A stretch of DNA of 64,000 nt from a virus (Duplodnaviria > Caudoviricetes), in IMG/VR virus record IMGVR_UViG_3300023100_000003, positions 30,755 to 94,754 of that record; one strand, given 5' to 3'. Position numbers and translations under genes: made by a program. Positions 3,064 to 43,197 of this stretch are shown piece after piece (position 1 is the first letter of the stretch; each line of letters opens with the position of its first letter). Below the pieces are notes generated by a model. The model did no database searches. It was not told the DNA's origin and worked only from the letters and a program-made list of their open reading frames with translations.

Positions 3064-3876
3064 TTAATTTCCTAGTCCTTGAATACATAATCTCATACTT
3101 TTAGGTAATTTACCATTATATGCTTCTCTTATTTTGACAACATGTCTGAGAGTATATTCTGGAGAATTTATATATTTATCATATATCTGATTTAACTCTT
3201 TGGATCTTTCTCTTCGAGTAATAATAGTGTAAACAGAATTATAGGACAACCCTAACAAATCACCTATAGCTTTAGAAGATACTCCATTCCTATTCAGAGC
3301 AAAAATAACAAGAATATTTTGCCAAACTTCTTTATAACTTCTGCCTAGGGATTGCGACAAATAAAATAAATCGTAAGGCACCCCATTTCTTTGAAAATCT
3401 TCTTTAGTACACAATTTTCTGATTGTTGATTCTACATACCCACAAGTGTCTCTATAAGTTATAAATCTATCTGTTAAATAAATCCTATAATCTTCATCTC
3501 TCACTGGAGCAGGGCATAATCCCATTTCATACATGTGTATAGTGTTTTCAGAACGAGTAGCCCATTCCAAATTATCTAATTTATTATTGAGCTTATTACC
3601 ATCTTTGTGATTGACTTCAGGTTTATTCTCAGGATTGGGGATAAAGGCTTCTGCTACAATTCTATGCAGATAAAGTGAACTAGCTACACCATCGTCAGCT
3701 GTAAGGCAAAGTAACCTGTAAGTTTTAGAATCTCGTGATTTATCGTACATAACTGCGCCTACCATTCTGTAAGGCTCTCCCTTCCTCAGAACACTAAAAA
3801 CTTCAGAATCTTTCGTCACATAATATCTTCCTTCAAATCCTTTTATCCATTTCCTGTCTTCATTCATTTCTATCAT
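3064..3876 (-). CDS. HNH homing endonuclease (NUMOD4-like N-terminus plus HNH domain)
   Basis: WIKGFEGRYYV N-terminus; LHRIVAEAFIPNPENKPEVNHKDGNKLNNKLDNLEWATRSEN. Confidence 0.9.
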   Translation of the reverse strand: MIEMNEDRKWIKGFEGRYYVTKDSEVFSVLRKGEPYRMVGAVMYDKSRDSKTYRLLCLTADDGVASSLYLHRIVAEAFIPNPENKPEVNHKDGNKLNNKLDNLEWATRSENTIHMYEMGLCPAPVRDEDYRIYLTDRFITYRDTCGYVESTIRKLCTKEDFQRNGVPYDLFYLSQSLGRSYKEVWQNILVIFALNRNGVSSKAIGDLLGLSYNSVYTIITRRERSKELNQIYDKYINSPEYTLRHVVKIREAYNGKLPKSMRLCIQGLGN

Positions 3877-4282: not shown

Positions 4283-5384
4283 TTAGCTTATACTAAATGT
4301 TTTTAATGCTTTCATTATCTCTGTATATGACTGAGTAGAGGGTGGATACCTTTTCTTCAATTCACATTCAGTTGCAAACAATGTAATCTCTTCGTCTTCT
4401 GATGGAAGCCCTATATCATAATTATGAGCTTTAATAGGGCCATGATCATAGATACTACCATTGTAACTGGTTTTACAATTAATGGGTAATACATCCTCAA
4501 TGGTATACACTCCATTAAACTGAGGATGAGTTAAACTAGTGAATGTTACTTCTTCTCCAATACTGTACTTAGGATTACTCATACTACCCTCCATCACATT
4601 TAACAGGGATTACAACGTCATCACAATAATTATCATCGTATACTTTGTATACAGTATATGCTAACAAGAAAACCACAATTGTTATACAACAGACGGATTG
4701 TTTATATTTCATTTCTGTAGTTCTTCCATCATCCACTTAAACTCTTTGTATTCTTTTAGTAGAGCATCATAATCTTGTGCAGAAACCCAATCACCTCTAA
4801 CAACTGTAGTTTCAAACATCTCCTTACCATCATTCCAGATACCATAGTAATCATTAAATGTTTCATACCGTTTTACATTCTCAAAATCTTGCATATTTAT
4901 TCTCCAAAATATTGCCATAGCACAGCATTACAAACACTATGTACAGCACCAATTGTTAAGCCAGTATTATGGCAATGATGTAAGTGTACAGGATACTTAA
5001 AGAAAGAGCTAGGGAATAATGATTCTTTTATTTTAAACTTAAGTACTTTATCGCTTGGATCAAGGTTAAGTGAATTACCACAATGAGAACATTTACCATT
5101 CTGTATTCTTATGTACTCTTCTCTAACCAAACGTCTTTCTGGTTGAGTTAGTCTGTTATAATCTACTGGTAGTTTCATAGTGAGCTAAACACCTGAGCAA
5201 GCTCTACTTCATACTTAGCTTTTTTATTAGTCATAGGATCAAATCCATCAGTAACATTAAGACCAACCACTATCCACTGCTTACCAAAAGCTTCATATAC
5301 CTTATGTCTATATCCATCGCAATACTCTACGTATTCGTCTTGGGTGATGCTAAATTTTATTTGATTCATCTTACTTAACCTCAA
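4283..5384 (-). other. Cluster of small hypothetical CDS (4283-4597, 4709-4894, 5175-5369) flanking the EndoVII gene
   Basis: Tightly packed co-directional ORFs. Confidence 0.6.
4897..5178 (-). CDS. Endonuclease VII-like (His-Me finger) nuclease
   Basis: QNGKCSHCG...LHHCHNTGLTIGAVHSVCNAVL matches the EndoVII pattern DH.H.TG.VRG.LC..CN. Confidence 0.75.
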   Translation of the reverse strand: MKLPVDYNRLTQPERRLVREEYIRIQNGKCSHCGNSLNLDPSDKVLKFKIKESLFPSSFFKYPVHLHHCHNTGLTIGAVHSVCNAVLWQYFGE

Positions 5385-6666
5385 TTACACAATTATGGCT
5401 ACTACCCAACACTTGTTCAAAACATCCTCTCATAACTTCTATCCCCTCATCTTTAAATCGTTCTTTAACAATTATACTATCATGCACAGGAATGATAACT
5501 TCTCCAATACTGTTGAAATGGCCTATCACTAGATCCATTATTTTACTATCAATATTCTGTAATAGCAATCCCTTAGGTTCATGGAACCATAATCTAATGT
5601 AATCATTCCGTTCTACGATAGCTTCAATGATTGCAGTATAGTCTATAAACTTAGGACATTTACCTTCTTCTACGAGTTTAGGTACAACCCCCTCTACGAA
5701 CATCATGTTAGCTAGATTTCTCCTTGACTCCCACCAACTAGCTACCCCTTTTGGATCAACACTAATACCACTATTCAAGAGTATTAAAGATGCAAACTTA
5801 CCAAAGTATCTGCATGTACGATCTTCATAATTAGGCAAAGTAATTGCATAGGGGTCAAAATCAACATCAAGTTCAATTCCATCTAAGGTAGCTGCTATTC
5901 TGGGGTGTAATGACTTGAAGTCAATCTCTACAGTTGGTTCTCCATCTATCCTAATCTTAGGTCTAATACCACGTTCCATAATCTTAGCTCCATCACCTAT
6001 AACAAAACTTCGCCCACCTTGCTCAAATGATGAGTTATTGTAAACTTTCTTTAGTTGAATATCATAACACTCTTCCCCGACTTCTATCATACTACTTCTA
6101 GTCATCTTGTTATACTTGTTTAGCATTTGAACTACTTCTTTCTGATAAAAGGGTAGAGGTGTTACTACTGGCTTCTTGTCAGAGTTTCTTATTTCCAAGA
6201 CTGAAGGTATTGTAGGTATCCTACTCTTGTAACAAATAGTCTTAAGATGTTCGTACAACTCTTCACTTAGCCTCATACTGGAGCTTATTGTCTTATCTGG
6301 AACTAATATACCACCCTTCATTACCCAAGAGCCTATACACCCTACAGTTAGATTACCTCTACCTGAGTAGTGCAACCAATCGAAAACACTTCTAGAGAAT
6401 GTGTAGGATACTTTACGGTTAACTTTAGTTCCATTATAGATCAAAGGTAAGCTGTAAGTCTCTTTATGTAAAACTACAGGAACTTCATCTCTACCAAAAG
6501 ATACTTGATACATTGCATTATATACAAAACAAGCAACAGCTTGGTATATCTTTGTTTTCTTGCTTTCTGTAAGCTTCAGTATTACTTGTTGGCCATACTC
6601 TTCTATGTATTCGTTATACAGATTTTCTACAGTGGTAGTAAGGTATTTAGGAACCTTATAATCCAT
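5371..6666 (-). CDS. Family-A/T7-RNAP-related polymerase without exonuclease domain (TV-Pol-like)
   Basis: QGGRSF, motif A IDGEPTVEIDFKSLHPRI, O-helix-like RYFGKFASLILLN, LQNIDSKIM, motif C IPVHDSIIV; likely start MDYK at 6666. Confidence 0.75.
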   Translation of the reverse strand: MDYKVPKYLTTTVENLYNEYIEEYGQQVILKLTESKKTKIYQAVACFVYNAMYQVSFGRDEVPVVLHKETYSLPLIYNGTKVNRKVSYTFSRSVFDWLHYSGRGNLTVGCIGSWVMKGGILVPDKTISSSMRLSEELYEHLKTICYKSRIPTIPSVLEIRNSDKKPVVTPLPFYQKEVVQMLNKYNKMTRSSMIEVGEECYDIQLKKVYNNSSFEQGGRSFVIGDGAKIMERGIRPKIRIDGEPTVEIDFKSLHPRIAATLDGIELDVDFDPYAITLPNYEDRTCRYFGKFASLILLNSGISVDPKGVASWWESRRNLANMMFVEGVVPKLVEEGKCPKFIDYTAIIEAIVERNDYIRLWFHEPKGLLLQNIDSKIMDLVIGHFNSIGEVIIPVHDSIIVKERFKDEGIEVMRGCFEQVLGSSHNCVIEVK

Positions 6667-6907
6667 TAGATAAATACTAATAATACATCTCCATACTACT
6701 ACTCCTTCATTAGTGAACAAAAAGTTAATAAAATAGCTCTCTAACCCAAGCACAGCAAGGGTTTCAGGGTTAAAAAGAGGTTAAATAAATCCCTCTACAT
6801 AAGTACTACTATACACCTCTTTTTCTAGAATACTAGCCCCTCCTATAGATTTGTTTGTTATTTAAACCGATGAAGTTATAACCCAAATATCAACTACCTC
6901 TATTTCC

Positions 6908-6952
6908 ACGTCTACAAGCCATTTTAACCCTTTACCTAGGCCGTAGTATTCC
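6908..6952. repeat. Dispersed intergenic element, copy A (ACGTCTACA-N27-TAGTATTCC)
   Basis: The same two 9-mers recur at 25099-25143 and, inverted, at 33558-33601. Confidence 0.8.
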
Positions 6953-7085
6953 TTTTACTATAAAACGTTCCTATGACGCTTATACGAAGCCGTATGGCTA
7001 TTGTAGCATTACACATCAACCATTATAAACACATATTAGAATAGTACAAGCATTATTTAATATAAAATATATTTACTCTTACCTC

Positions 7086-7114
7086 TTGTATTTAAGCATA
7101 CCTCATGGTAATAT
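7086..7114 (+). promoter_or_regulatory. sigma70-like promoter for the rightward arm
   Basis: TTGTAT-N17-TAATAT with TG upstream of the -10. Confidence 0.55.
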
Positions 7115-7155
7115 TCTCTTATGAACTTAAAGAAGTGTTCATTTATCAATATCTT

Positions 7156-12989: not shown

Positions 12990-14141
12990 ATGAAATACAT
13001 AGTGGAACAAAAGAAGCTTGAATCGTTATTAGATAGTGAAGTGTGGGATCTACTGGCAGAACATAATGCTATCGTAGCTGGAGGAGCTATCACATCTCTA
13101 TTTTGTAGTAGAGAGATAATGGACATTGATGTTTATTTTCGATCTGAAAGAGATCTGGTTAAGGTATTAGCTGCTATATTTAGCATTGAAAGTATTTCTG
13201 ACCATGAGATAGGAAGTTTTTCTGTACATGTGTCAGGTTTAAGTCAACGTACAATTATCTGTTCTAACCAAGAGCAAATGATTCAATTCATGACATTCAA
13301 ATACTTCCCAGATGTACAGGATATCTTCGATACATTTGATTTCACTGTGTGTATGGGAGCTTATGATTGTAAGACACAAGATTTCACATTACACCCAGAA
13401 TTCTTTAAACACAATTCCCAGCGTTACCTTAAGTTCAACACAGGAACAGCTTTCCCTCTTATGAGCCTCATGCGTGTAGATAAATATAGGCAGAAAGGTT
13501 ATGAGATTAGTAAAGCTGAATTACTTCGTGTAATCTTCTCTTGTATGCAATTAAACTTGAATTCTTGGGAAGAAGCTAAAGATCATATTGGTGGGATGTA
13601 CGGATATGATATGTCTAAAGCTTTTGAGGAAGATAAAGACTTCACTCTAGTTGAGCTATCAGAACAGTTATCAACGCTTCAAGAACGTGGTACAGAGCTT
13701 TACACACCTATTGGCCATGCTAATAAAGGCTTCTGGGAAATTGCAGAAGAACTATTCTACCGTCCTGAAGAAATATTACCTGAACCAGAATTACCTGTGT
13801 TTGATGATGAGAAATATTTATACAAATGTGTACAATCAGATGGTACAAGTTATTATGGTTCCTCATATGGTAAAGTGGATTACATTGTAGGTAGTATTAT
13901 TGATGTCCCAAGTGGTGGATTGTTTTTCCATAGCTCAAGTAAGAATCCTTATGTACAGGATGATAATTGGGTTGAGTGTGAATTATTAGAAGGTGCCTTT
14001 AGTTCAGAGTATGGTAATCAGAAGAGAGTAGTCCATGGTGGGAAGGTTAAAGTAATACGTAGATTTAAAGTTAATAGTAGCCGTAATAGTTGGAGTGAGC
14101 TACAGACGTGGATGTTTAGTAAATTTGGTAATGAGGAATAA
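12990..14141 (+). CDS. Pol-beta-superfamily nucleotidyltransferase (CCA/poly(A) polymerase head-like)
   Basis: AIVAGGAITSL...DIDVYF and FDFTVCMGAYD; GGAGG RBS. Confidence 0.75.
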   Translation: MKYIVEQKKLESLLDSEVWDLLAEHNAIVAGGAITSLFCSREIMDIDVYFRSERDLVKVLAAIFSIESISDHEIGSFSVHVSGLSQRTIICSNQEQMIQFMTFKYFPDVQDIFDTFDFTVCMGAYDCKTQDFTLHPEFFKHNSQRYLKFNTGTAFPLMSLMRVDKYRQKGYEISKAELLRVIFSCMQLNLNSWEEAKDHIGGMYGYDMSKAFEEDKDFTLVELSEQLSTLQERGTELYTPIGHANKGFWEIAEELFYRPEEILPEPELPVFDDEKYLYKCVQSDGTSYYGSSYGKVDYIVGSIIDVPSGGLFFHSSSKNPYVQDDNWVECELLEGAFSSEYGNQKRVVHGGKVKVIRRFKVNSSRNSWSELQTWMFSKFGNEE

Positions 14142-14145
14142 TAAC

Positions 14146-15195
14146 ATGGATAATACACAGAAAGTAGTTTGGTATAAAAGTGAAGATGGTATTTACGTAA
14201 GTAAACCTACATTCAACTACACTGGAAATAGGGATCGTATCAATGTAGCTTTAATAAACGATAAAGTACCAACGGATACTCATCTCTATGGCTGGCAATT
14301 TGTTGAAGGTGAAACAGAGCTTAAATCTTTAAAAGATAAGAAAACTGGCCCTATCTGCAATATCCGATATGAACTTATCAATCCAAGTTTAGCTGGTGAT
14401 AAAATTCCTCTGGTGTTGACAGATAAACAAGTCAATGAAGAGGAAGATTGGGAAGATGATGATGAGCCTTACAGTTGGCATAATCCTGAATTTAATAGTT
14501 TAAGATCTTTATATGAACGTAAGTATGACAGAGAGCCAGCTTTCTTTGTAGAGGTTCCTTTTGAAGCTGAATATTTGGGAGAAATCCTTGCTGACAATGT
14601 TAACAACATAAGTAATGCAACTTACAAGATTAATCGTGGACATTACGCTAGTGATGGTTTTCAAGATATAAACATTAAAGATGTAGTTAAGTATTATGAA
14701 TTAGAACAAATGTTAGTTTCAGATTTATTATTACATAATCGTCCTTGCTATCTCGATTCACCTACTACATACAAAATAGTTCGTAATTACATTAAAGATA
14801 ATATCAACCCTAAAACAGCTATAGTATCTTCTGATTATGATTTCTGTTTTACTGTGGAAAAGAAGATATCAGTCAAGCCTTGGGTTAATCGTAGAGAGAT
14901 TCTTACTAGTAGAGGTAAATCTTATCGTCCACTAAAGTTTACAAGCAGCAATGTGGAATACAAGAAAATTAAAGTATTTGAAATGACTAATTCTAAAGAT
15001 AAGTATCAAGGCTATAGTGTTATTGATGGATTCAAAGGAGATAATCTAAAGAATTTGATTGACAATATTAAACTCTTCTTAGATGAATTATTAGAATTCA
15101 TTAATCAGGAAGTATCAGAATGTGAACACTGTAAAGGTACTGGTCACTTAGTGATGGATACTTTTGATAAGAATAAGCGTACTCAAGATGATTAA
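14146..15195 (+). CDS. Hypothetical protein directly downstream of the nucleotidyltransferase
   Basis: Long ORF with SDYDFCFTVEK and C-terminal CEHCKGTG; likely start MDNTQ. Confidence 0.65.
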   Translation: MDNTQKVVWYKSEDGIYVSKPTFNYTGNRDRINVALINDKVPTDTHLYGWQFVEGETELKSLKDKKTGPICNIRYELINPSLAGDKIPLVLTDKQVNEEEDWEDDDEPYSWHNPEFNSLRSLYERKYDREPAFFVEVPFEAEYLGEILADNVNNISNATYKINRGHYASDGFQDINIKDVVKYYELEQMLVSDLLLHNRPCYLDSPTTYKIVRNYIKDNINPKTAIVSSDYDFCFTVEKKISVKPWVNRREILTSRGKSYRPLKFTSSNVEYKKIKVFEMTNSKDKYQGYSVIDGFKGDNLKNLIDNIKLFLDELLEFINQEVSECEHCKGTGHLVMDTFDKNKRTQDD

Positions 15196-19583: not shown

Positions 19584-19991
19584 TTAAGAATTATTCTTAT
19601 ATGTCCCCTTTTTGTCACCTTCATTGGTGACTTTTCTCTTCTTTATAAAGGAAAATTTATATTTCCTGCTAATCCCTTTCCCCATATTTTATAATCCCCC
19701 TATAAAAACACACCTTAGTATTATGTATCTATGAAATATCTGTAGGTAGGAATATCTTATAACGGAGTTATAGACAGTAATTAGTACAGCAAATACACCC
19801 CCTTGGGATACCAAGATAACGAGACTTGGTGCTTATGTTACGTAATTCTAATACTATCAATATCTTAAGTCCGTGAGGACTAGTGTTTAACAAGGTCCCC
19901 CACCGACCTATTGTTCTCTCCGAGCTTATTGAAATATCTACCACATCTCACAATCATTGTCAATAGTATAATCGATAATAAATAACTATTC

Positions 19992-20542
19992 TACAGCGTA
20001 GCTGTAATAGGATATGACTATCATCACTGTAAGTGATACATAAGTACATATAAGAGTAGTAGAGAGATAAATAAACAATAAAGAATGATAAGATGATAGA
20101 GATAAGAGATATACATTATATACGTGTTCCATGTCATAAGCTATGCTTATGTGCGTGTTCACAGTCTACGACTGTTTCACGTGGAACAATAGACTGTGAT
20201 AGAGTATTAATAGTATAGCTTACGCTATAGGGTGAGTGTTGTTGGTTTAACAACCAAGGGATGAATAGATATAACCATAGGGTGTATGTACGCTATCGCA
20301 TAAAATTGTACTATTCTTAGCAGTAATACTATCTATAGCGTAGCTATAATAAGTTATTGATTACTAAAGTAATAATGTATATTCGTAGCTACGCTACATA
20401 TAGGTGCTATCTTGTGTTTACACACAACATGTAGTGCTATTATTGATTAGTTTATTTATGTATTTCCTTACAATAATCAATGGATATAATAAATGTTATA
20501 AGCATAGCTTATGATAGATGTTAATAGTCTAAGCTACGCTTA
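19992..20542. repeat. Array of eight mini-hairpins with C-GTA-G / C-GTAA-G / C-ATA-G loops
   Basis: Inverted repeats at 19992-20006, 20135-20151, 20161-20175, 20214-20229, 20334-20348, 20385-20397, 20498-20512, 20530-20542. Confidence 0.85.
20173..20188. promoter_or_regulatory. parS: parS (ParB/Spo0J binding site)
   Basis: TGTTTCACGTGGAACA, an exact fit to the widespread chromosomal consensus TGTTNCACGTGNAACA. Confidence 0.8.
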
Positions 20543-30559: not shown

Positions 30560-31101
30560 GTTAGTATGAATCTTAATGTTATTAGTTAGTATTATATAAC
30601 TGTCCTTTGGTGAGTAAATTCTGGATAGAACTTCCCTATAGATCTCCATACCCCATAAGGAGCCTAAGAAGAACTATAAGTTAAATCCTCAGAATCTACT
30701 ACCTAAGACATCTGTCCTTTGGAGCCGCAATATTCTCTGCACTACAGGCAGCATACAATTAAGTATGGGATAAGATAATAGACAGCTAATCTACATCTCG
30801 TGATGTGCTTCCGCTTTAGCCAGCGTCATAGCCCTGTCACATCAACTCATCTAAGAGCAACTTCCTCAGGTTGAACATGCCTTCTTTGTTCTACTATTGG
30901 TACAGAAGAGGTTATCCCAGAAAACTCCCAATAGACAACTAAATCTTTAGTCATACATCTATGTTACCACGACAATTCAATTCTGTCTATTAGTATTTAA
31001 CTATCAAGTCAATAGTTTTAATTAATAATACCATTAATCCCCATATAACCATTATGACTATAACCTATAACTATTCAATCTAAAAGATAGTGATCTTTTT
31101 G

Positions 31102-40971: not shown

Positions 40972-43197
40972 ATGAAGTCTTTATATGTTTACGACTTGGA
41001 AAGTTATCCAAATTGCTGGTTATGTTGTATTGCAAATTTAAGTGAAAGAAAGATCAAAGTGTTTGAGATATCATTTCGCAAAGATCAACGTAAAGAGTTG
41101 TTTGAGTATTTACGTGAAGTTTACAAAGTGAATGGTCATTTAGTGGGTTTTAATTGCGTTTCTTACGATTACCCATTATTGCACCAGTTACTGAAGAACA
41201 AAACATTATCAGCAAAGGAATTATTTGAATACGGAAATAAAATGATTAAGGCACAGTATTCAGATAACAAGTGGCAATATGTTGTAAAAGATAAAGATGT
41301 AATGCTTCCTCAAATTGATTTATTTAAGATTCACCACTTTGATAATCGGGCTAAGGCTACATCATTGAAAATGATTGAGTTCAATGGTCGCTCTGATAAC
41401 ATCCAAGAGTTGCCGTATGAAGTAGGTAAGTATTTAACTTCAGAAGAAATTGATAATTTAGTTAGATATAACATTCATGATGTTAAGGAGACTATCAAAT
41501 TCTACGAAGAATCCAAAGAACAAATAGCCTTTAGAGAGAAGTTAAGTGAGCAATATGGCTTCAATGCACTTAATTGGAATGATACAAAGATTGGTGCTGA
41601 ATACTTTGTGATGGAATTAGAAAAAGCTGGTGTTAAATGTTACGATGGAAAAGGTAAACCAATACAAACTAAACGTCCATTTATTGATTTACAAGATTGT
41701 ATACTTCCTTACATTGAATATGACAGACCAGAGTTTAAAGCAATCATTACTTGGTTGAAGAGACAACGTATTACAGAAACTAAAGGTGTGTTCAGTGATA
41801 TTATGGAACACCAATTAGGAGATGTAGCTAAATACGCTGACTTAACTACTAAGCGTGAAAAGCTTAAAGTTAAACCAACAGAAGATGATATTAAAAAGTT
41901 CAAAGAAGAGAAACCTTTATGTTGGGTGGAAGAGATTGAACTGAAAGCTAAGTTACCAAAGAAAGATGGTGGTGGATTTAAGAAGTCTCACTATTTATGC
42001 TGGAAGATATGTGAATCATTGAATGTTAATGTAGATGGTTTGCAATATGTTTATGGTACAGGTGGCATTCATGCTGCTGTAGAAAAGAAAGTAATTGTAT
42101 CAGATGAAAAAAGAGTAATTAGATCTTATGATGTTAGTTCTTTCTATCCAAACTTAAGTATTAAGAATCTGTTTTACCCTGAACATTTGGATGAGAAGTT
42201 TTGTGAAATTTACGAATACATCTACAACTTAAGAAAACAGTATGATAAGAAGTCTGCTGAGAATGCAATGTTGAAGTTAGCTTTGAATGGTACTTATGGT
42301 AAATCAAATGATCAATACAGTCCTTTCTTTGATCCCAAGTTTACTATGCAGATTACATTGAATGGTCAATTGTTATTAACTAAAGCGATTGAAATGGTAA
42401 AGACAATACCTACCGTTGAAATCTTAATGGCAAACACAGATGGTTTTGAATTTATTGTTGATCGTGAGTATGAACATCTTACTGCTGAGAAATGTAAAGA
42501 ATGGGAAGCAATGACCAATCTAGTTTTAGAAGATGTTACTTATGATAAAATGGTTGTACGTGATGTGAACAATTACATTAGTATTAAAACTGATGGTTCA
42601 ATTAAGATGAAAGGAGCTTATGAATGGCAAGGTTTACCTCATAACAAGAACCAATCAGCTCTTGTAGTTAAGATGGCTGCTGAGAAGTATTTAGTTGAAG
42701 GGATTGATCCTGAAGAGTTCATTCGTAATCATAAGAACAAGTTTGATTTCATGTTACGAACTAAGGTTCCAAGAACTAGTAAATTGATTACTGTGGATAA
42801 AGAAGGTAAAGAAACTCAAGTACAAAACATTTGTCGTTATTATGTGAGTAATGAAGGTGAGGAACTTGTTAAGGTTATGCCTCCTATTGAACTAACTAAA
42901 ACTGAACAAGTTTGGGTTAATCATGAATTGATGGATTCAGTGGTTATTTCATCTAAACCTGATATCAACAGATATTCAAAGAAAGGTTATGTGTTTAGTA
43001 AAGAGATCGAAACCAATTGCCCAGATCGTAGGTTCATGATCGAAGCTGGATGGAAGTGTAAAGTAACTAATGACATAAAAGCTTTTGATTGGGATATTGA
43101 TTATAAATATTACATTGATCGTACTTGGAAGTTAGTGAACTTTGCAGATGGTGAGGACAATGAAGACTTAGAAGAAAGTATAGATAATGTAGAATAA
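40972..43197 (+). CDS. Family B DNA polymerase with 3'-5' exonuclease domain
   Basis: Exonuclease motifs YDLE, GFN..YD, YNIHDV; polymerase motifs YDVSSFYPN, KLALNGTYGK, NTDG. Confidence 0.92.
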   Translation: MKSLYVYDLESYPNCWLCCIANLSERKIKVFEISFRKDQRKELFEYLREVYKVNGHLVGFNCVSYDYPLLHQLLKNKTLSAKELFEYGNKMIKAQYSDNKWQYVVKDKDVMLPQIDLFKIHHFDNRAKATSLKMIEFNGRSDNIQELPYEVGKYLTSEEIDNLVRYNIHDVKETIKFYEESKEQIAFREKLSEQYGFNALNWNDTKIGAEYFVMELEKAGVKCYDGKGKPIQTKRPFIDLQDCILPYIEYDRPEFKAIITWLKRQRITETKGVFSDIMEHQLGDVAKYADLTTKREKLKVKPTEDDIKKFKEEKPLCWVEEIELKAKLPKKDGGGFKKSHYLCWKICESLNVNVDGLQYVYGTGGIHAAVEKKVIVSDEKRVIRSYDVSSFYPNLSIKNLFYPEHLDEKFCEIYEYIYNLRKQYDKKSAENAMLKLALNGTYGKSNDQYSPFFDPKFTMQITLNGQLLLTKAIEMVKTIPTVEILMANTDGFEFIVDREYEHLTAEKCKEWEAMTNLVLEDVTYDKMVVRDVNNYISIKTDGSIKMKGAYEWQGLPHNKNQSALVVKMAAEKYLVEGIDPEEFIRNHKNKFDFMLRTKVPRTSKLITVDKEGKETQVQNICRYYVSNEGEELVKVMPPIELTKTEQVWVNHELMDSVVISSKPDINRYSKKGYVFSKEIETNCPDRRFMIEAGWKCKVTNDIKAFDWDIDYKYYIDRTWKLVNFADGEDNEDLEESIDNVE

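Follow-up and report, generated by a model that had tools for sequence, protein, structure and literature searches.

A divergent polymerase of the TV-Pol/divPolA2 family at the head of the late-oriented arm of an uncultured phage genome

Among described systems, the closest to the protein considered here are the divPolA2 polymerases, which were reported from 110 genomes of barbaviruses with a PolB of their own, as well as from other phages, a genome sometimes having two or three paralogues (Yutin et al., 2024, PMC11348598). These proteins have an active palm and lack both an exonuclease and a canonical thumb; their N-terminal globular domain is of unknown kind and unrelated to those of the known single-subunit, PolA-related RNA polymerases (RNAPs). 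Their gene neighborhood is variable, and a role as a repair polymerase, as the first option, or as an RNA polymerase was proposed (PMC11348598). The TV-Pols, which lie in elements with an integrase- or resolvase-type context, have been predicted from gene context to be primase-polymerases (Iyer, Abhiman and Aravind, 2008, PMC2579912). Since Yutin et al. (2024) name TV-Pol once, in the Background and unconnected with divPolA2, we take the identity of the two groups as unstated in that study (PMC11348598). The only assayed "TV-Pol" is CcPol, which uses deoxynucleoside triphosphates and is a proven A-family primase as CcPol-MP (Bebel et al., 2020, PMC7581432). In the present study, we analyzed a window of 64,000 nucleotides, the right-hand 64 kb (positions 30,755 to 94,754) of the 94,754-bp virus record IMGVR_UViG_3300023100_000003, which is rated complete by CheckV, and in particular a gene for a 431-residue polymerase of the TV-Pol/divPolA2 type (5371..6666, minus strand, stop codon included).

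The protein is almost certainly a member of divPolA2, a published phage clade (PHROG 4756), within a TV-Pol/divPolA2 family. It matched PHROG 4756, annotated as "unknown function", at an E-value of 1e-72, and we regard it as divPolA2 because it matched the published representative AUR84708 of Vibrio phage 1.063.O (MG592441, 25484-26749) by tblastn with an E-value of 7e-26 and 99% query coverage. A palm with catalytic residues, the lack of an exonuclease, an N-terminal globular domain instead of a canonical thumb and a regular PolB in the same genome were all found here. The published divPolA2 proteins (Virol J 21:200, PMC11348598) are thus alike in their architecture of palm and fingers without an exonuclease or a canonical thumb, and also in the PolB beside them, the variable neighborhood, the paralogues in some genomes and the structural ties to mitochondrial RNAP (mtRNAP) and N4 RNAP. 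The present protein is only 25-29% identical to the published members and resides in an uncultured 94.7-kb leaf-litter phage, in which its gene heads the late arm. By tblastn, 217 records of the phage collection matched, all at less than 32% identity, and the annotation among the 40 of these matches that were listed was "hypothetical protein". The matching phages were Rheinheimera Barba phages (E 8e-47), Vibrio phages including ICP1, and Aeromonas and Pseudoalteromonas phages; Rheinheimera phages accounted for 115 matching records. The ICP1 reference ORF100 (gp100) is also a member (hhalign, Prob 100, E 4e-50), and family-wide, 3217 representatives at 50% identity matched at E-values up to 1e-3.

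Searches of the single protein and of profiles against Pfam, NCBIfam, PADLOC and PDB sequences returned nothing relevant, and neither did searches of 42 diverse members against Pfam and NCBIfam. The canonical family A signature (a Pfam DNA_pol_A match, the steric-gate Glu, and Phe/Tyr...Tyr in motif B) was not found, the fold alone being held in common, and of a T7-like RNAP signature (a Pfam RNA_pol match, the motif B Tyr, repeated phage promoters) nothing was found except that motif C is likewise HDS. No fused forms of 1036-2955 amino acids appeared in the search, which is weak evidence, the length range being odd. In seven longer family members, no additional domain was informative; one of them had a GIY-YIG/NUMOD part. 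In that case, from a Bacteroidota metagenome-assembled genome (locus L168, 7260-9398), the polymerase open reading frame (ORF) runs on into GIY-YIG and NUMOD homing-endonuclease domains, which may be a fusion or a read-through of the gene next to it.

The link of the protein to TV-Pol holds at the level of sequence comparison, because of core matches in bacteria, their integrase/resolvase context and a profile match to gp030 of the cyanophage Ma-LMM01. When each prokaryote species was represented by one genome, 80 bacterial loci matched the core, approximately residues 176-431, with E-values of 6e-25 to 4e-5, and these included Reinekea blandensis MED297 and the alpha proteobacterium HTCC2255; among the species listed in the TV-Pol study are a Reinekea sp. 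and an unspecified alpha proteobacterium (PMC2579912). Tyrosine integrases (at 45 of the 80 loci) and serine resolvases (at 18) were the commonest neighbors of the bacterial genes, and a few loci had type I restriction-modification genes; the TV-Pol elements are described in this same setting (PMC2579912). Ma-LMM01 gp030, aligned with six homologues, matched the family profile in 169 columns that span the beta-hairpin through motif C (hhalign, Prob 85.8%, E 5.3e-6) and was the only profile match in the Ma-LMM01 genome, where it adjoins IS605-type transposases; gp030 is probably the cyanophage TV-Pol listed by Iyer et al. (2008). In a FastTree phylogeny of 137 sequences, the protein fell within a clade of 24 sequences, all viral, with a support of 96, and viral and bacterial labels interleaved on this tree such that approximately 10 changes were needed. 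The idea of an RNAP or primase is already in print for this family (2008, 2024), and the protein is a further divergent member rather than a new kind of enzyme.

Regarding the gene itself, the sequence-only reading of this DNA had pointed to a 431-residue ORF with EIDFKSLHP, VHDS and an O-helix-like R...K and had noted that these motifs suit the TV-Pol group; all are present at verified coordinates, on the minus strand. The ORF runs from an ATG at 6666 to a stop codon at 5371. An alternative in-frame GTG at 6753 would add 29 residues (460 in total); since alignments with homologues begin at residues 1-4 of the 431-residue form, ATG 6666 appears to be the likelier start. We also observed that this ATG has no obvious ribosome-binding site of its own and that a five-codon mini-ORF (MEMYY, stop) preceded by a strong Shine-Dalgarno-like GAAGGAG (6677-6708, minus) ends 10 nt 5' of it, and thus translation of the polymerase might depend on reinitiation after the mini-ORF. 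The elements that define TV-Pols, namely, two palm Asp residues, a beta-hairpin that carries a conserved Arg, and a fingers Asp with an RxxxK helix, without a nuclease, were all recognized. The GGR sequence (G217-R219; 6010..6018) lies in the predicted hairpin, R219 corresponding to the template-contacting Arg of TV-Pol and PolA. Motif A, EIDFKSLHPR (5899..5928), contains the catalytic Asp D249 and H254; DPY (5848..5856) contains D271, the conserved fingers Asp, and Y273; motif B, or the O-helix, RYFGKFASLILLN (5773..5811; R286-x3-K290-x3-L294-x3-N298), falls in a predicted helix at residues 282-299; and motif C, VHDS (5476..5487), contains the catalytic D396 (all on the minus strand). The four core elements of the integrase/resolvase-linked TV-Pols and of Ma-LMM01 are therefore common to this protein (PMC2579912); it differs from them in that no D5-like helicase, integrase, resolvase or transposase was found near its gene and in that the phage is of a virulent type with a complete replisome.

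R219, D249 and K290 were invariant in alignments of phage and bacterial relatives, and R235, H254, R286, N298, D271, H395 and D396 were invariant or at least 90% conserved, varying with the alignment. When phage, ICP1, bacterial and Ma-LMM01 sequences were aligned together, R219, R235, D249, H254, D271, K290 and H395 were invariant, and Y273, R286, N298, D396 and S397 were at least 90% conserved. D249 was invariant in all four alignments; D396 was invariant in alignments A1 and A2, and its conservation in A4 was at least 90%. The (near-)invariance of D249, D396, R219, R286, K290 and D271 from phages to bacteria supports catalysis, and the polymerase is very probably active.

The right-hand palm fold that the sequence-only reading had anticipated is confidently predicted, together with fingers of the family-A/T7-RNAP type, in an AlphaFold2 model built with a 40-sequence alignment (predicted local distance difference test score, pLDDT, 93.8; predicted TM-score, pTM, 0.87). 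In this model, residues 151-431 (5374..6216, minus) form a core of approximately 280 residues with palm and fingers, with predicted strands at 204-209 and 217-223 in the region of the GGR hairpin. Residues 1-150 (6217..6666, minus) form an N-terminal domain of two long helices (7-28 and 34-55) followed by a winged-helix-like alpha/beta unit; this domain is possibly DNA-binding or a substitute for the thumb, and winged-helix matches to it when searched alone were at background level only. The thumb described for TV-Pols is N-terminal and made of two antiparallel helices, but the two long helices here precede the winged-helix-like unit. No exonuclease domain was present in the model, and no DnaQ- or RNase H-like chain occurred among the listed fold matches, as had also been read from the sequence. 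Family A DNA polymerases ranked first in a Foldseek search against the PDB (prob 1.0, E 1.7e-5), with a TM-score of only approximately 0.3. A second structural search, run independently of Foldseek, gave the following matches, each with three unlabeled values in the same column order: apicoplast Pol (14.1, 233, 4.0), yeast mtRNAP (13.2, 336, 7.2), Aquifex Pol I (13.0, 243, 4.5), Pol nu (12.7, 244, 4.2), T7 RNAP (12.7, 255, 3.4), Klenow (12.3, 228, 4.4), N4 mini-vRNAP (8.1, 350, 6.8) and N4 RNAPII (7.0, 170, 5.5). DNA and RNA polymerases are therefore level with each other in this list. The matches to DNA polymerases mostly start at model residues 150-160.

The active site is not that of a typical member of either class. 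Alignments of the family profile with the single sequences of T7 RNAP and T7 DNA polymerase by hhalign were not significant; they aligned motif C and motif A, respectively. The counterparts of motif A are, we assume, D475...E480 in T7 DNA polymerase and DYSQIELR in Klenow. From the motif A alignment with T7 DNA polymerase, itself part of an overall alignment that was not significant, H254 would occupy the position of the steric-gate Glu of Pol I. By the spacing of motif B, we take L294 to stand at the position of Phe762/Tyr526/Met635 and N298 at that of Tyr766/Tyr639, so that motif B would have an Asn where Pol I and T7 RNAP have a Tyr. Motif C has the HDS form, as in T7 RNAP, versus HDE in Pol I. 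His254 could block the 2'-OH or bond to it, and the choice of sugar is not readable from the sequence; as H254, L294 and N298 match neither class, the product could be DNA or RNA.

The genome supplies its own replisome, and the polymerase is an accessory to it and not the replicase. As the sequence-only reading had noted, a family B replicase begins at 40972: a 741-residue protein (40972-43197, plus strand) that matched phrog_1252 and PF10108 (an exonuclease-type Pfam match only) and that is assigned to family B by these matches and by its motifs. YDVSSFYPNL, KLALNGTYGK and NTDG presumably fit the PolB consensus, its motif C reading NTDG versus what we take to be the usual DTDS. This PolB had no PDB sequence match at E-values up to 0.01. 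The accompanying primase-helicase aligned with T7 gp4 and has Cys/His residues at its N terminus that may form a zinc site. An acidic residue is kept at each acidic TOPRIM position (GGEND, MDDDSAG and SKD), which we take to be E157, D159, D207, D209 and D237 in T7 gp4 numbering. The suggestion that an altered TOPRIM motif creates a need for another priming enzyme was consequently not borne out, all five positions being acidic as in T7 gp4. A hairpin array near 20 kb, proposed at the same time as a candidate template, fared no better. The mini-hairpins (C-G-closed, with 3-nt loops) at 19759-20540 form a real cluster, with 8 of the genome's 46 such hairpins within 800 bp; the array is absent from two complete relatives of approximately 94 kb that carry the polymerase, which have at most three such hairpins per 800 bp, and the hairpin core AGCGTAGCT was scattered or absent in five relatives.

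The polymerase gene heads the minus-strand arm on a simple ORF map, as had been proposed: it is the first minus-strand gene, and is followed by small ORFs, two tRNA genes and then TerL, portal, capsid and tail genes. The small ORFs encode a small endonuclease VII-like protein (4897-5178, minus), DUF7695, an HNH_3 homing-type endonuclease (3064-3876, minus) and a zinc ribbon, the two endonuclease genes lying between the polymerase and the terminase genes. The tRNA genes (1818-1891 and 1900-1970, minus; one tRNA-Pro with anticodon UGG) lie in a 452-bp gap between a 140-residue putative TerS and the genes before TerL, and an Rfam scan of positions 1-22000 returned these two tRNAs and nothing else. 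The plus-strand arm starts 367 bp away and includes PhoH, a Gad1 homologue, the T7-gp4-like primase-helicase, the DNA polymerase, an exonuclease and ribonucleotide reductase. The 366-residue Gad1 homologue (14095-15195, plus) matched Pfam Gad1 (Gabija anti-defense 1) with an E-value of 6.8e-64, and the gene before it (12990-14141) had a weak match to a nucleotidyltransferase PHROG. The divergent intergenic region 5' of the polymerase gene (6754..7120, 367 bp) is presumably where the two arms have their promoters. A single sigma-70-like site (7029-7000) points toward the polymerase gene; promoter and terminator scans yielded sites that were not above the shuffled background, no word of at least 12 nt was repeated in the genome in a promoter-like manner, and intergenic motifs of either arm did not exceed those of shuffles. 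No RNA sequencing run was listed as containing this stretch; the only data set that contains it is a leaf-litter metagenome, which is probably its source.

We surveyed the context of relatives at 80 viral loci, comparing neighbors by BLAST, and took upstream-gap statistics from 74 viral loci. The gap 5' of the polymerase gene had a median of 133 bp, versus 11 bp for the background, and the ORF directly upstream was on the opposite strand at 31 of the 74 loci, versus a background of 22%; an opposite-strand ORF occurred within two ORFs upstream at 52 of the 74. A large gap with a nearby opposite-strand ORF is consistent with a promoter-proximal gene that adjoins a control region. TerL lay downstream on the same strand at 17 of the 80 loci and portal at 8. 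In the Barba phages and the L016-L018 clade, the polymerase gene is upstream of replication genes, with the primase-helicase downstream, and not of structural genes. Small ORFs that overlap or abut the polymerase gene are common (43 of 51 start within -20 to +20 nt of its stop codon) and are unlike in sequence between clades; a complex prediction of the polymerase with its overlapping downstream ORF of 69 residues scored 0.00 and carries no verdict. Paralogue pairs were found on the same contig for L019 and L023 (93,452 bp), L024 and L032, L031 and L033, L046 and L069, and L071 and L073, and the group of approximately 94-kb phages contains two polymerase lineages, that of the present protein and that of L016-L018, which occur singly or together.

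Relatives occur beside PolB, as in this phage and the Barba phages, and beside PolA, as in ICP1. No RNAP is predicted in ICP1, in which PolA is gp58 and the gp4-type primase-helicase is gp57 (PMC9040626). The gp100 region varies between ICP1 isolates: the reference NC_015157 (53113-54780; locus L087) has ORF100, ORF101 and the Mom-like ORF102, and isolate 1992_Ind_M4 (locus L001) has a copy of 434 residues followed by an ORF of 339 residues. We found no mention of gp100 in the ICP1 transcriptome paper or in its supplements.

The role that we tentatively prefer, as possible rather than probable, is that of a site-directed primase-polymerase that helps to start replication, in origin firing or restart. 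The N-terminal domain would place the enzyme on a specific site in the phage DNA, where the core would begin or extend a short chain, and the replisome would then take over this chain for origin firing or restart. De novo chain start, the nucleotide sugar, the site of action and the time of expression are parts of this scheme that we infer. A precedent is provided by the assayed A-family primase CcPol-MP together with the prediction of TV-Pols as primase-polymerases. CcPol-MP of the staphylococcal cassette SCCmec is an A-family enzyme without a working exonuclease that starts chains for a mobile element, and is the only functional precedent (PMC7581432; Rice, 2023, PMC10061031). The sugar-discriminating residues of Pol I, equivalent to E710 and F762, are retained in CcPol, which groups with canonical PolA (PMC10201439); the present protein has His and Leu at these positions. 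With these features and its use of deoxynucleoside triphosphates, CcPol is a poor guide to this family. No MP-like partner, which in the CcPol-MP type is a small OB-fold protein encoded beside the polymerase and bound to it, was identified for the present protein. A likeness to piPolB of pipolins, a self-priming polymerase of integrative elements, is by analogy only, piPolB being of the unrelated family B.

Several points weigh against this role. The sequence-only reading had stated that the activity of the group is largely unassayed, and this remains correct: we found no literature report of an assay on a core TV-Pol or divPolA2 enzyme, only those on CcPol, which clusters with PolA. Neither a D5-like helicase nor a recombinase was found near the gene here. 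The TOPRIM acids and the Cys/His residues of the primase-helicase are kept, and a second primase is therefore not evidently needed. There is no mapped origin; the GC skew reaches its minimum at the strand switch, a signal with which the direction of transcription is confounded. No neighbor was conserved by BLAST across the 80 viral loci, the sugar-selecting positions fit neither DNA nor RNA polymerases, and a position 5' of TerL could instead mean late expression.

An alternative is that the protein is a minimal single-subunit DNA-dependent RNAP, which host RNAP would express from the divergent promoter region and which would then transcribe the packaging and structural arm. In phiKMV-like phages, the RNAP gene lies just 5' of the structural genes, a layout comparable to the present one. 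The RNAPs of T7, mitochondria and N4 carry a Tyr at the motif B position that is replaced by Asn here, and the genome has no promoter-like repeat of the kind described above, with intergenic motifs at the level of shuffles. The protein is approximately half the size of T7 RNAP and has no Pfam RNA_pol match, in which it also differs from other T7-like RNAPs including N4 RNAPII, and the N-terminal domain of T7 RNAP is much longer and, like those of the other known single-subunit RNAPs, unrelated (PMC11348598). Moreover, the genes of the Barba phages and the L016-L018 clade precede replication genes and not structural genes, and the bacterial relatives reside in integrase/resolvase-linked elements with no obvious role for a transcriptase; taken together, we consider this alternative unlikely. 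Its extension to the whole family, in which divPolA2/TV-Pol enzymes including gp100 would be the smallest known single-subunit DNA-dependent RNAPs, with a core of approximately 280 residues steered by a winged-helix domain, appears very unlikely, and it is an equally long shot that such enzymes would transcribe a class of phage genes or lay the RNA that fires an origin. If true, it would explain the switching of programs in ICP1-like and Barba-like phages, which are thought to be without an RNAP of their own.

The lack of an exonuclease, the small open core, the altered fidelity residues (N298 for Tyr) and the status as an accessory to a full replisome are also what may be expected of a specialized primer-dependent DNA polymerase for repair, gap filling or end processing, acting on damaged, nicked or recombining phage DNA, possibly late in replication or before packaging. 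The endonuclease VII-like and HNH endonucleases downstream, just before the terminase genes, suit this explanation, which is the first option of Yutin et al. (2024, PMC11348598). It does not account for the link of the bacterial relatives to integrases and leaves both the promoter-proximal position and the presence of two to three paralogues in one genome unexplained (PMC11348598); in addition, the neighbors are not kept across the family, and we regard it as improbable. The bacterial context instead invites the suggestion that the gene is mainly selfish, a passenger that serves as the replication gene to a mobile element moving among phage genomes with little or no benefit to the phage. In bacteria, the relatives are carried by integrative elements, and on the tree, viral sequences are interspersed with bacterial ones, with approximately 10 label changes. 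The neighborhood is variable, the gene is patchy among related phages in a copy number of one to three, the ICP1 copy region differs between isolates, and at one bacterial locus the polymerase ORF includes a GIY-YIG homing-endonuclease part. However, the catalytic residues are strictly kept despite great divergence, no recombinase or terminal repeats flank the gene here, and the family is present in 110 barbavirus genomes (PMC11348598), as well as in the 115 Rheinheimera phage records matched in the present study. A passenger of this kind is, in our view, highly improbable.

The preferred role as a primase-polymerase and its alternatives concern a family that is very large, absent from Pfam and NCBIfam and mostly labeled "hypothetical", and that is present in well-studied phages such as ICP1 (gp100). 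With His, Leu and Asn at the positions that decide between DNA and RNA in Pol I and T7 RNAP, this class of mobile-element polymerases may make either product. To the family, the copy described here contributes one more divergent member and a clear case of a gene that heads the late arm.

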